Part shown: piece by piece, positions 3,256 to 19,331 of the stretch
Layout of the letters: each line of letters begins with the position of its first letter
Numbering within the stretch: the stretch's first letter is position 1
Origin: Macrostomum lignano
Taxonomy: Eukaryota
DNA: 29,091 nt
Direction: 5' to 3'
Assembly (NCBI GenBank): GCA_002269645.1
Contig: NIVC01001684.1
Coordinates: forward strand, 1-29,091
Translations under genes and position numbers: made by a program
The notes under the pieces: model-generated
Databases searched by the model: none
The model's input: only the letters and a program-made list of their open reading frames with translations
Told to the model about the DNA's origin: nothing

Positions 3256-3566
3256 CTATGAAACACAGCCAAGAATAATTTCCTTGTAGGTCTTTCGTGT
3301 TTTGGTCATTGCATACAAAACAGTCATGCACAGCTCACCGCAAATATCACTGCTAAGACCTTGGAGAATAAAGTCTGAGCGATAAATTTTTTTATTATTT
3401 TTCCCCTTCATATAATTTCTTAGCTCTTCTGGTACTGCCGTTCCATAGCTATCGAAGTAATAACACTTGTGCTTGCGATCGGGATCAATCACCCAGCAAA
3501 CCCAATGAGATCCTGGCTTATCGGTGGTGTCAAAGTTCATGATGCCGCATTCCTTTCTTAGAGGAA
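3256..3566 (-). pseudogene. Adenain-like cysteine protease, 3' fragment of the outer gene, cut by the nested insertion
   Basis: Matches 10654-10964 (GSHWVC, YFDSYG, LQGLSSDICG); the first ~32 codons lie at 19326-19422. Confidence 0.93.
3561..3566. repeat. Target site duplication GAGGAA (left copy) of the inner element
   Basis: The uninterrupted site at 10959-10964 reads TTA-GAGGAA-AATCAGG; here TTA-GAGGAA-[element]-GAGGAA-AATCAGG. 6-bp TSDs are typical of Polintons. Confidence 0.95.
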
Positions 3567-4062
3567 AGTAGAAGGCATGAGGGGGCTTCTGGGACAAAAT
3601 TTTTCACATCCTCCATAATCCCATTAAATCCATCCATATTATCCCCGACAGAATCAGAAAAAAAGGGGGGTCGCACTCGCTCACAAAACGTCCTCCATAA
3701 TCCTATTAAATCCATCCATATTATCCCTGACAGAATCAGAGCATAACAGGTGTCCTAGTTGCTCCGAAAACTTCGAACATAATCCCATTAAATCCATCCA
3801 TATTATCCCTGAATCAGAGCATAACAGGTGTCGCACTCACTTACAAAACTTCGAACATAATCCTCCTAACCTATCCTCCTTCCTCCACGACAGAATCAGA
3901 GCATAGCAGGTGTCCTACATAATCCACTGACATCCACCCATAGCATCTTCGAAACAATCAGAAAACAATCTGTATTCTTCTCCACACATTCAATTCGCAA
4001 TTCGCAACGCATCCCAAAGACTTTGAATCCCCTAACCCAGGGTCCTTACCCTTTGAAAAAAA
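3567..4062. repeat. Left terminal inverted repeat of the inner element, built from ~65-bp subrepeats
   Basis: Inverted match to 18806-19325 and 27850-28370; recurring unit CATAATCC...AAATCCATCCATATTATCCCTGACAGAATCAGA. Confidence 0.9.
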
Positions 4063-4080
4063 ATTAAATTTTCTCTAAAA

Positions 4081-4320
4081 ATGTTTCCAGTTGTCTCTCC
4101 AGGTTCTTATTACAAAGCGCACGAGCCTAATTACAAGAGTAAGTACCGATGCAAACTTGAATGCAGCGAGTACATGAGAAAATATTGGCCCGACGTTGAT
4201 ATCAATGTCCCTAATATTAATCTAGCTCTCCAAAGACACTGGTTTCATAAGTATGGAGTAACCTATGTAAAAGATTACGACAGCTACTATAACTTTGTAG
4301 AAATCATTAGACAATTGTGA
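4081..4320 (+). CDS. Small Tyr-rich ORF (79 aa) of unknown function adjoining the TIR
   Basis: Intact ORF with A-rich start context; an inverted second copy at 27225-27841 keeps the reading frame once its insertion is removed. Confidence 0.65.
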   Translation: MFPVVSPGSYYKAHEPNYKSKYRCKLECSEYMRKYWPDVDINVPNINLALQRHWFHKYGVTYVKDYDSYYNFVEIIRQL

Positions 4321-4324
4321 TTTC

Positions 4325-5187
4325 TTACATTCTCTCAATGATCAACGTCAATACAAACTCTTCACCGTTGAAATCAACACCCATCCCATCTTCAGTCTCA
4401 AACTGTAGCACAATCTCGTGAATCTCCTTATTACTCAATACAACTCTTTTCACTGGATTTGGTTTCTCTACCACCATCTGTCCTCCAGCAACAGAGTTGG
4501 AGATGTTGTACAAAATATTCGTTCGCTTTCCCTTAAATACCCAATCAAGACTGAGATTGCTTCTGATTAGAATATTCAAACCCTTTACAATGTCTGCAAT
4601 ATTGGGTGCTAAGAACAAACCGCTTACATTTTCCCGGGCCATTTTAACGGTCCCCGATGCTTGAGTGGCGGTCCGCGCCGCGGATTCTGCCTTATAAACT
4701 TTCTTCTCGAATCCCAGTTCCCTATACCAAGTGTCATCTTTAAACTCAACCTCCGCATCTTTGTGAACTTGCATGACCACTCTCATTACAGTGAGATCAT
4801 AGGTTAGTTTAACAGGGAACAGTTTCTTCTCTGGCTTACTCATATCAGGTGTCTCAAAATGGCCTCTTTTAGTAAAGACGTTTTCTAGAAAGTAATTGTA
4901 GGTATCCACACTTTGCGTGCTCACAGGGAATACCACAGGTTCTGCTGCTGCACCTTTCCATTTGTAATAAAACTTATTATTTGCTGCCGTCACATTGGGA
5001 ACGTTTGACCAACCAGTGAAGTCGTTAAGATAGACATGGTAATTAGCACCTGGATCCAGGCTAATCGCCTGCTCTAATTTTTGAACAAATATCCCGTTTG
5101 AGTCATTAATCGCCCAGTTATTGTAATAGGAATGCTCTCCTTGGAGTGCGAAATAATATTGTTTAGTCTTTCGGCTATAGCTTCCAT
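4325..5187 (-). CDS. Minor capsid protein (penton, single jelly-roll), 1-bp frameshift near the 5' end
   Basis: The frame of ORF 4325-4993 stays open upstream (ISLDPGANYHVYLNDFTGWSNVPNVTAANNKFYY); C-terminus ILYNI...PG-like GG...EKP...VDFNGEEFVLTL fits the Polinton mCP pattern; adjacent to MCP; ATG at 5187 is one base out of frame. Confidence 0.8.
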
Positions 5188-5207
5188 TTTTTGTCCTAAA
5201 AAAATAT

Positions 5208-17066: not shown

Positions 17067-17529
17067 TTCAAGCAAGAAAATTCAGCTGGATTAGCGGCTG
17101 TTTGGGAGAAGAGTTAAGTTTTCTGGCCTTCTGGCCTTCGCTTCTCTTCTCTCCACACAAGTGTACAGTCTTGAGCACACTGGTTTCGGTTACAATCTCT
17201 CTTTCCACCATGCCCTTCTCCTTCATACTCCTCACCTCGCGCTATGCTCTGTGTACAGAGAAGTCTCACGCCTCATGCTCTATCGTACACTGAGCTATAT
17301 CGATTGTTTTTCCCTGCTTGACTCCAAGATTGTACAGTCTAGAATTTTCTGGAATTTTCTAGCTGTATAGCTGTATTTAAGCAAATGCAGAAACACTCGG
17401 GTTGATTCTCCCCGCATATGCCATCAACTGCGACTGAGAAACGACGACTGCAGGAACTTAAGCACGCTGAAAGTGATCTAAGAAATAGTCCGCCAAACTA
17501 GAAGATTAGAAGACAAGAAGATTTAGAAA

Positions 17530-18207
17530 ATGGAAGTCGAGTGGAATCTTCATTTGACAGATAAGCAAGGCCTTTGTGCCATGCTACAAAGAGTTTTACA
17601 GGATATTCCGTCACATCTACAAGCAAGAAGAAGAGAGGAACTAACCACCTTTTTCGGTCTAGAAACTGGCGACCTACCAATCGAGTTTTTCGCCATGGCC
17701 CCTGATGATATCGCCGCAGCGAATGAAGCGCAAAATGTGAGTAGCGAAGAGAAGAAGGCGGCGGCTCTGCAGAAGAAGATGGCGGATCTGCAGATATTCA
17801 GGGAGAAGTTGTACGCATCCCGCGTAACACTAGCTGATCAGCTGATGGACGCTGTTGATCACCAGCTTCCATCTGGCGAGCAGAACATCATCACTAGGGT
17901 GAAGGCGGCTCTAGCAAAATACAAGAAGACTCAAATTGGAGGTCTACATTGGATTCTCGAAGTTGGGCGGCTGCTAAAAACTTATCGCACCGAGAACTTT
18001 GGACAAGATGTTAAAGTGCGGTTCGCCCATTTGTGTAAAAATGTAAACATCCAGGAATCAACTGGCTATTTGTACATTCGTCTGTACAAACTGTCTGTTA
18101 CCTACCCAGGCTTAAGACAGGTGTCAATGCCAATTAGGGAACTAAACTCTAAGATGAAGTTTCTAGAAGAAATTTTGGCCAGTGATCCTGCGTGGAAAGT
18201 TGTGTAA
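17530..18207 (+). CDS. Uncharacterised helical protein (225 aa), inner accessory slot
   Basis: Long intact ORF with AAAATG start; C-terminal half distantly similar to the product of 26157-26795. Confidence 0.8.
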   Translation: MEVEWNLHLTDKQGLCAMLQRVLQDIPSHLQARRREELTTFFGLETGDLPIEFFAMAPDDIAAANEAQNVSSEEKKAAALQKKMADLQIFREKLYASRVTLADQLMDAVDHQLPSGEQNIITRVKAALAKYKKTQIGGLHWILEVGRLLKTYRTENFGQDVKVRFAHLCKNVNIQESTGYLYIRLYKLSVTYPGLRQVSMPIRELNSKMKFLEEILASDPAWKVV

Positions 18208-18234
18208 TTTTTTAATTCAGTTCATTTAGAATTT

Positions 18235-18657
18235 TTCTAACGCGTTAGAATTTCAAAGAGAAGATTCAACAACTGGAGACAGCCGATTGGTTAAGTAGAG
18301 GAAGGTAGCAATTTTCTCAGTACTGTGTGCAACTCAGTCGGTGGGTTTTAAATTCTAACGCTGTTAGAAATTTCTATGTGAAAAGTTTCCCGCAAGATAA
18401 GCTTGGGCACACCAAATTTTCACATAGAAAATTCTAACGCGTTAGAGAATCTAGCTGCTGGCTCAAAGGAACGCTAGGTTGGCTCTGTATGGTTAAATAG
18501 AGGGGGTAGAAATTTTCTAACGCCGTTAGAATTTTCTATGTGAAAAGCTTCCCGCAAGATAAACTTGGGCACACCAAATTTTCACATAGAAAATTCTAAC
18601 GCGTTAGAGAATCTAGCTGCTGGCTCAAAGGAACGCTAGGCTGCATGGCTCTGTATG
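18235..18657. repeat. Array of palindromes TTCTAACG(n)GTTAGA within two ~140-bp direct repeats, each a long hairpin
   Basis: Palindrome at ~18235, 18353, 18432, 18516 and 18594; direct repeats 18351-18491 and ~18513-18657. Confidence 0.9.
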
Positions 18658-18805
18658 TTGTTGAAGAATTCTAACTCAGATCCTACATAGTGTCTGTTTT
18701 TTCTACCATTTTTGATACTCTTGTAATAGTTAATACATATCCTATCAGCTGTGCAACCGTTAATAAATATATAATTCTTACTAATGAATAATAAAATTGT
18801 TTATA

Positions 18806-19325
18806 TTTTTTCAATGGGTAAGGACCTTGCGCTGATGATTTAAAGTCTTAGGGATCTGGTTTCACGTTGCGGATTGAATGTGGGGAGAAGAATGCAGATT
18901 ATTTTCTGATTGTTTCGAAGATGCTATGGGTGGATGTCAGTGGATTATGTCAGTGTCAGTGAGCATAACAGGTGTCAGTGGACCCATATTCCCATATTCT
19001 GTCAGTCATAATATGGATGGATTTAATGGGATTAAAGTTTTCGGATCAAGTGCAACCCCTCCCCTTTTTCAAGATTCTGTCGGGGATAATATAGATAGAT
19101 TTAATGGGATTATGGAGGACGTTTTGTGAGCGGGTGCGACCCCCCTTTTTTTCTTATTCTGTCAGGGATAATATGGAAGGATTTAGGTGGATTATGGAAG
19201 ACGTTTTGTTAGCAGGTGCGACCCCCCTTTTTTTCTGATTCTGTCAGGGATAATATGGATGGATTTAGGTGGATTATGGAGGAGGTGAAAAATTTTGTCC
19301 CAGAAGCCCCCTCATGCCTTCTACT
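18806..19325. repeat. Right terminal inverted repeat of the inner element
   Basis: Imperfect inverted match to 3567-4062; ends CTCATGCCTTCTACT. Confidence 0.9.
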
Positions 19326-19331
19326 GAGGAA
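19326..19331. repeat. Target site duplication GAGGAA (right copy) of the inner element
   Basis: Immediately follows the terminal CTACT; identical to 3561-3566. Confidence 0.95.

Follow-up and report, generated by a model that had tools for sequence, protein, structure and literature searches.

In the genome of Macrostomum lignano, the maturation protease gene of one Polinton/Maverick element contains a second, closely related element. The window is the entire contig C1684 (29,091 nt), in which the inner element spans 3567-19325 (15,759 nt), with AGTAG/CTACT ends and an orientation matching that of the outer element. A GAGGAA hexamer (3561-3566, plus strand) immediately precedes its start (AGTAGAAGGC, 3567), and its end (GCCTTCTACT, 19325) is followed by a second GAGGAA (19326-19331, plus strand). 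The empty target is a single GAGGAA at 10959-10964 in the inner element's own protease gene, with identical flanks on both sides; this target and the 6-bp duplication, both described in an earlier note on this DNA, are read directly in the window. The contig starts inside the outer element, whose left arm (7,590 nt in contig C2829) is represented by positions 1-3560, comprising the end of a 409-aa gene, a 21-nt tandem array, the packaging ATPase gene, ORFs of 272 and 213 aa and the 3′ part of the protease gene. Contig C2829 carries the outer left end (CAACAA/AGTAG) and the identical left junction of the nest, and contig C2806 the right junction and the outer right end; each inner/outer junction is present in two contigs, and both target-site duplications are exact. 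The outer element has its own CAACAA duplication (28371-28376, plus strand, the left copy being in C2829), and its right terminal inverted repeat (TIR; 27634-28370, minus strand) matches the left TIR, present in C2829, at 99.5% identity across 740 nt. Together the two elements form a 32.4-kb composite. The exact duplication and the recurrence of both junctions in second contigs support a true integrase event and exclude a tandem duplication, as the earlier note had held.

The insertion interrupts the outer protease gene after codon 32. The first 32 codons lie at 19326-19422 (minus strand, ATG at 19422), and the frame continues only to a stop at codon 34 within the inner right TIR. The adenain-like 3′ part at 3256-3560 (minus strand) holds the His/Asp/Cys residues, with the His aligned with the His54 region of adenain, which bears out the previously noted separation of the gene's start from its catalytic motifs. 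An in-frame ATG in this part opens a 94-aa frame without the first 39 residues. The inner protease gene (10654-11055, minus strand) is unbroken, encodes 133 aa, matches PF00770 (E 1.6e-4) and adenovirus proteinase 1avp (E 0.003), and contains the empty target. With its protease split within a 32.4-kb composite, the outer copy would be disabled in cis. The protease acts in trans, and a special dependence of the outer element on the inner protease for capsid maturation, as previously suggested, is unsupported because 244 PolB-bearing copies in the assembly could provide the enzyme; any such need would be met by many family copies.

The inner element opens with a left TIR at 3567-4072 (plus strand; AGTAGAAGG, with sub-repeats of ~82 nt) that is 75.6% identical over 545 columns to the right TIR at 18793-19325 (minus strand, CTACT end). 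Minor and major capsid genes (4325-6492, minus strand) are double jelly-roll-like, the major capsid protein (MCP) being identified from the outer element's copy in L162, and are followed by an A32-like packaging ATPase (8329-9128, plus strand; PF04665 on the L162 copy). Beyond the protease gene lie a protein-primed PolB (11089-14963, minus strand, range start approximate; PF03175 on the outer homologue), a protein X-like gene (15087-15533, minus strand; PF05829 on the outer homologue), an rve integrase (15550-16586, minus strand), a PLA2-like gene (16618-17066, plus strand; PF08398 on the outer homologue) and an inner-specific accessory ORF of 225 aa (17530-18207, plus strand). Among 98 ends with at least 1000 nt of inward sequence, the sub-terminal module of this ORF was found on none but its own. 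The inner element had been called complete, which holds for its gene content only: the reading frames of both capsid proteins, the ATPase, PolB (several breaks) and the integrase (one break) are broken in the window, and some of the breaks are missing from the second contig of the locus. PolB is broken in all 14 scored stretches holding part or whole of it, with a longest frame of 868 aa, because of assembly indel noise, which amounts to 0.2-0.6%. Its termini, reported as intact, are so over the terminal ~40 nt; past the tip the TIRs are 76-86% alike, agreeing at 212 of 246 and 384 of 537 columns. With these unlike TIRs and its own accessory gene, the inner element may already have been a recombinant mosaic at integration.

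To the right of the nest the outer element carries its own PolB (with frame breaks), protein X-like, rve integrase and PLA2-like genes (19456-25473), the integrase (23920-24957) encoding 345 aa, and an accessory ORF (26157-26795, plus strand; 212 aa, weak HTH) unlike that of the inner element. The PolB DNA of the two is 98.4% identical. Their core differs by 1.1% substitutions over 5,457 nt and the inner element differs from a copy at another locus by 0.39%; the inner element is therefore not a copy of the outer.

The census recovered 346 TIR ends, about 153-190 insertion sites and 244 PolB copies, counted as PolB motif matches from which the family's share of the 764-Mb genome is estimated at 0.5-0.8%. 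With a share this low, the nesting needed a statistical test. Insertions into family copies exceeded that share, the comparison proposed in the earlier note: seven direct nests at five loci, with the duplication on both sides in five of the seven, against 0.8-1.5 expected (0.78-1.49 before rounding), a 3-9-fold excess (P 2e-5 to 9e-4 by events, 1e-3 to 0.018 by loci). Non-nested insertions were also frequent within ~20 kb outside a copy (9 against 1.25-2.18 expected, P<5e-4). The ratio of inside to outside insertion density was 0.9-1.75 (p 0.28-1.0), and reached 2.5 (p 0.047) when three indirect or collapsed nests were added (10 events) and the outside window was enlarged; these are small counts, with a neighbour list compiled by hand from coordinates, an approximate gap at C1190 and an assumed availability factor of 0.9. 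One comparator, picked after the fact, was a host repeat of ~450 nt with 4,457 exact pattern matches; it received four insertions, 4-10-fold over its share.

Besides the present nest, nests lie at C5061/C4149, C2787/C2506, C1098 and C957. Three of the seven direct nests fall in one locus (C2787/C2506), where nesting reaches three levels, and one (element C of C2787) lies in a stretch of the host repeat that a family copy contains. Targets are spread along the element in both orientations, with coding DNA struck in four of seven nests (protease, PolB, ATPase and accessory ORF region) and others in the tandem array and non-coding DNA. Guest and host diverge by 1.9-2.4% over whole shared arms at three nests and by 5.5-5.8% at two. 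Two junctions at C1098 share one duplication in inverted form and were counted as one event. Excluded from the direct count were C217 (106 nt of MCP adjoining a TIR), the second level of C3589/C5061 (located in an insert of ~0.9 kb within a family copy), and C27 and C1518 (an internal TIR within an element closed by one duplication). Flanks at C187, C1190 and C2787:116071 were rejected as family DNA, being a high-copy host repeat also found inside some family copies; of these only the C2787 insertion, which sits within a family copy and is flanked left and right by the duplication, was counted. Oversized elements at C48, C958, C1412 and C217 were likewise rejected as nests, as the insertions within them (an LTR element in the case of C958) are of other kinds and lack family core genes.

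The reading best suited to these data is that a young copy entered a resident sister's protease gene and generated a 6-bp duplication there. The likely cause is that this active family, through preferential insertion or survival, accumulates in a limited number of repeat-rich regions crowded with its own copies, without recognising sister DNA. Such crowding would be made by regional accessibility together with purifying selection against 16-kb insertions elsewhere. Regional crowding suffices without sister targeting because the nine neighbours occur at similar density and the short host repeat was struck four times. Safe-harbour targeting of residents and competition between sisters, both raised earlier, are not supported as the cause, since insertions are equally dense beside copies and in the unrelated host repeat, and the other nests struck targets other than the protease. 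Sequence-specific targeting was rejected because the duplications are diverse and the positional bias weak: of 199 distinct flanks, 167 have A/T at position -9, a weak W preference 3 nt outside the duplication to which the nest site conforms. The frequency of W..W sites is 0.353 in the element, only slightly above the 0.306 of the flanks.

A less probable explanation is that linear copies of several reactivated proviruses replicate and recombine together in one nucleus, where the integrase often inserts one genome into another of the family, free or at an active proviral locus, as the most concentrated local DNA. Nests and mosaics (unlike TIRs and swapped accessory genes, as in the inner element) might then be footprints of a replication compartment of animal Polintons, and a main engine of family recombination. 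The 3-9-fold excess, the three-level nests at C2787/C2506 and the low divergence at three nests are consistent with such capture, and TIR pairs with an intact duplication, which are often unlike (76-100% alike), fit a recombination that precedes integration and involves copies replicating together. Against it, however, insertion density just outside copies is about equal to that inside, an unrelated host repeat is over-struck to a similar degree, the hosts 5.5-5.8% diverged from their guests are older residents, and capture off the chromosome would need the 32-kb composite to integrate as a unit. If true, capture would be a rare, indirect indication of the site and mode of replication of animal Polintons.

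Pure chance, with uniform insertion genome-wide and one nest expected among ~170 insertions, is improbable. For a single nest alone it would do, the probability of at least one being 0.55-0.78, but the seven events at five loci, together with the nine close neighbours, are more than uniform insertion predicts and contradict it unless the family share is several times that estimated. The nest is very probably not an assembly chimera between two copies. The assembly does contain misjoins within these elements (the flank of C1811 appears at an end in C4149), the duplications of 6 out of 18 end pairs do not match, and indel noise is present. A misjoin of homologous copies, however, cannot yield an exact 6-bp duplication at a pair of TIR-to-protease junctions; both junctions recur in a second contig each, and the structure is closed by the outer TIRs and the CAACAA duplication. 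Among short-read contigs of four runs over 19236-19445, none of the best 32 of 774 pieces bridges the right junction by 31 letters per side; within that set, depth at 19327-19333 in run X5 is explained by an empty-site piece alone, so this sample may be without the nest, and the hole in coverage proves nothing. Adaptive targeting of the protease gene, whether sister viruses compete or one depends on another as helper, and a local hop of the outer element into itself are largely contradicted already and most improbable. The insertion does part the protease from its catalytic residues, but none of the six other direct nests struck that gene, the 244 copies could act in trans, and the inner element, which is closer to another locus, departs from the outer one in its TIRs, its accessory gene and 1.1% of core sites.

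The family belongs with the animal Polinton/Maverick elements (polintoviruses), among which the Alpha adintovirus type (Starrett et al., PMC8502044) is closest, and shares with them a PF03175 PolB (E 3.4e-10 for 400 aa of the outer gene, PolB being spread over several frames in the assembly), an rve integrase (PF00665, E 2e-9; 1,568 homologues among 2,480 candidates) and the adenain-like protease. Also shared are an A32-like ATPase (PF04665, E 4.9e-6) and a DJR-like MCP (PF21738, E 5e-5, under the curated cut-off), both on the outer element's genes in L162, where atlas neighbours of the capsid (0.97-0.98) include DJR-like clusters, as well as PLA2-like and protein X-like genes, AG...CT-ended TIRs and the 6-bp duplication. 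In contrast to the single PLA2X gene of Alpha adintovirus (PMC8502044), PF08398 and PF05829 occur here in separate ORFs on opposite strands; the inner TIRs are also unlike each other. An N-terminal OTU domain on a PF03175-type PolB is an Alpha adintovirus trait; in a Pfam search the N-terminal 368-aa PolB piece gave no match to OTU. Elements here measure 15.8-16.6 kb, compared with a vertebrate mean of 16.9 kb (PMC8097293).

Nesting of Mavericks in Mavericks is an already known kind of event, and a single nest is an ordinary one for an active transposon family. Among the papers listed by literature searches, no animal study tested self-nesting. The present data add two modest points: in an animal genome in which the family makes up less than 1%, insertions show a 4-7-fold clustering within resident copies and next to them, and an element can integrate with a perfect duplication even when up to a quarter of its TIR sequence differs from one end to the other; TIR homogenisation is therefore not required before integration, and copies recombine. 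Nested Mavericks are described in Trichomonas vaginalis, where they make up ~40% of the genome as against 0.5-0.8% for this family (PMC12289875, PMC7845603). Halocafeteria seosinensis harbours five PLVs and nine virophages within other viral elements, and has in common with the present case three-level nests and insertion into repeat-rich regions (bioRxiv 10.64898/2026.07.28.741278); it is, however, a protist, mostly different subtypes are nested in each other, and section 8 of that work contains no enrichment test. The "autoinsertion" of plant LTR retrotransposons likewise places same-family nesting above expectation, ascribed to expansion in waves and to common niches in the genome, but concerns another element class that avoids coding regions, whereas coding DNA was struck in four of the seven nests here (PMC6911290).

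The inner Polinton begins with AGTAGAAGG at 3567 and ends with CTACT at 19325, and is bordered by the hexamer GAGGAA on its left (3561-3566) and right (19326-19331). The same hexamer, as the empty target, lies uninterrupted at 10959-10964 within the protease gene of the inner copy itself. On self-alignment of the window, 2682-3567 matches 10084-10965 (98.1%) and 10959-16972 matches 19326-25343 (98.4%), both as direct repeats that join exactly at GAGGAA. The resulting order of outer-left, inner and outer-right cannot be yielded by tandem duplication, which is thereby ruled out. 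The AGTAG/CTACT ends, flanking duplication and empty target described in an earlier note are thus all read in the window, and its assignment of the structure to an integrase-type event stands. Its claim that the first ~32 codons of the outer protease gene are cut off from the catalytic part is likewise borne out: from the ATG at 19422 there are 32 codons, the frame then stopping after 33 residues inside the right terminal inverted repeat (TIR) of the inner copy, and the remainder, including the His aligned to adenain, is found at 3256-3560.

An assembly chimera is very improbable, as misjoining homologous copies cannot connect a TIR to the protease gene at two places and leave an exact duplication. 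Contig C2829 repeats the left junction and also contains the outer left end (CAACAA followed by AGTAG) and 7,590 nt of the left arm, and contig C2806 contains the right junction along with the outer right end and then CAACAA; these contigs and the window (all of contig C1684) were possibly built from the same reads, so that their agreement is not independent biology. The outer TIRs are 99.5% identical across 740 nt. The nest is real and well supported. The right flank of the outer copy (28422-29091) is a purine-rich, G-rich degenerate tandem repeat of GATGGGGAAATAGATT-like units.

Pfam searches of 17 ORFs returned rve integrase, PolB (PF03175), adenovirus endoprotease, PLA2-like and protein X-like domains, and those of four outer genes in C2829 an A32 ATPase and a DJR-like capsid protein. 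Both copies are animal-type Polinton/Maverick elements, with a gene set near that of Alpha adintovirus in the available part of its description (PMC8502044). The inner unit is 15,759 nt long, the outer 16,629 nt without its insert and the composite 32,394 nt. The inner copy had been called complete, which holds for gene content; its reading frames for PolB, integrase, the capsid genes and the ATPase are broken in the window. Over 10.7 kb of the inner copy, C2829 and the window are 60 gap letters apart, and certain frame breaks occur in just one of the two, so either copy may be coding-intact or not.

Core substitutions separate the inner copy from the outer by 1.1% and from a copy at another locus by 0.39%. 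Its right accessory ORF is unlike that of the outer copy, and its two TIRs match at 212/246 and 384/537 columns, unchanged with ends from C2829 and C2806. Judged by sequence, the inner copy is a mosaic rather than a copy of the outer. The family often combines unlike TIRs with an intact duplication: 12 of the 18 end pairs compared have an exact duplication, with TIR identities in these of 80 to 100%. Because family core divergence is only 0.4-3.8%, unlike TIRs are not explained by age; they may instead derive from pre-integration recombination between copies, or from later conversion and slippage of 82-nt sub-repeats. Near-identical copies carry different, interchangeable sub-terminal accessory ORFs beside the TIR on the integrase side; those at 17530-18207 (225 aa), 26157-26795 (212 aa) and, in another stretch of the assembly, L220:540-1180 (about 212 aa) gave no clear Pfam family. 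An ORF of ~80 aa (4081-4320 and 27587-27841) lies within the 740-nt TIR of outer type, and so is carried at both ends of such copies but, in the inner one, at the left end alone.

The 764-Mb assembly has 346 matches to the 22-nt TIR tip (83+78+76+109), of which 337 were listed, and 244 to a PolB motif. Outward flanks were aligned for 206 distinct ends, 11 further loci and the C2787, C4149 and C2806 regions; the other listed ends, unaligned, were taken by eye either to repeat an end already tested or to share a duplication with one. The 206 ends reduce to 153 sites with cross-contig pairing and 182 without, with 153 and 190 used in calculations, and the family share is 0.51% (16 kb per copy) to 0.78% (an assumed upper bound of 300 copies of 20 kb). 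Many junctions are present on two or three separate contigs, and contigs often break within family elements, so some of the copies counted lie on redundant haplotigs or in duplicated segments of chromosomes. Internally deleted derivatives of 3.6-3.8 kb retain both TIRs (C105:570682-574517, C544:473028-476600 and C827:105496-109162); two of the three carry an exact 6-bp duplication, which suggests mobilisation in trans.

Direct nests number seven events at five loci, against 0.78-1.49 expected, an excess over the uniform expectation of 4.7-9-fold by events and 3.4-6.4-fold by loci. By the test that the earlier note proposed, insertions into family members thus exceed their genome share, as measured against a uniform null. 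Besides the window nest, they comprise insertions in PolB at C5061/C4149 (TACACA both sides), in the ATPase gene at C2787/C2506 (CAGATG both sides, over two contigs), inside the guest of that nest in a host repeat it carries (GGCAGG both sides) and in a 21-nt tandem array at C1098 (TGGGAC, second junction inverted), and single junctions at C957 and C2506:28471. Five family copies cluster from C2787:88481-140536 into C2506:1-38420 (stretches L253-L256, L216-L219 and L192), as a host copy with two insertions, one bearing a third, and a neighbour 0.8 kb off. Nests of near-identical arms are natural recombination substrates, and the C1098 inversion and collapsed structures at C27 and C1518 fit recombination within nests, or assembly flips. 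At C958:154700-163650 (L241), a family TIR contains a 9-kb LTR retrotransposon with LTRs 99.3% identical, an ORF of which presumably starts with a DnaJ-like motif.

Nine more insertions lie outside resident copies, within about 20 kb, where 1.25-2.18 are expected (P below 5e-4), and the uniform null for insertion sites is wrong. Insertion density is 1.28-1.79 per Mb inside copies and 1.02-1.45 per Mb just outside (ratio 0.9-1.75, p 0.28-1.0), the ratio reaching 2.5 (p 0.047) only with three indirect or collapsed cases added and a wider outside window. With low counts and a neighbour list assembled manually, there may be a modest preference for sister DNA. Four Polinton insertions, 4-10-fold above its share, lie in a short host repeat with 4,457 matches to its pattern, a comparator chosen post hoc; the four fall within about 50 nt, two at a homologous position (flanks C1203, C1190, C2877/C3246 and C2787). 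This ~450-nt repeat, present in 4,457 copies or more, also occurs inside a sub-terminal module common to two family copies (L220:2236-2750 = C5061:~12140-12650). Integrase site bias is weak (A/T at position -9 in 167/199 flanks), and the window nest site fits it on both sides.

Together, these data show that a young mosaic copy entered a resident copy, itself young, by an integrase-type event, and that insertions cluster across the family. Regional accessibility, along with selection removing 16-kb insertions from other places, would account for the clustering, and the insertion would disable the outer copy in cis. Proteases act in trans. The suggested dependence of the outer copy on the inner protease is accordingly unsupported, given also the hundreds of copies present, the absence of the protease among the targets of the other six direct nests (0/6), and a family known here from genes and not from particles. 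Capture of family copies by sister insertion in a shared replication compartment is considered unlikely.

No animal study testing Polinton self-nesting was found in the literature searched, mostly without subscription papers. Retrotransposons inside virophages and PLVs, as presented in the available portions of two reports (PMC8547959, PMC12220804), are a different case. In Halocafeteria, the accessible text describes five PLVs and nine virophages within other viral elements, a three-level nest among them (10.64898/2026.07.28.741278), and same-family "autoinsertion" of plant LTR elements is attributed to shared niches in the part available (PMC6911290). The window nest is a further instance of an already known kind of event.
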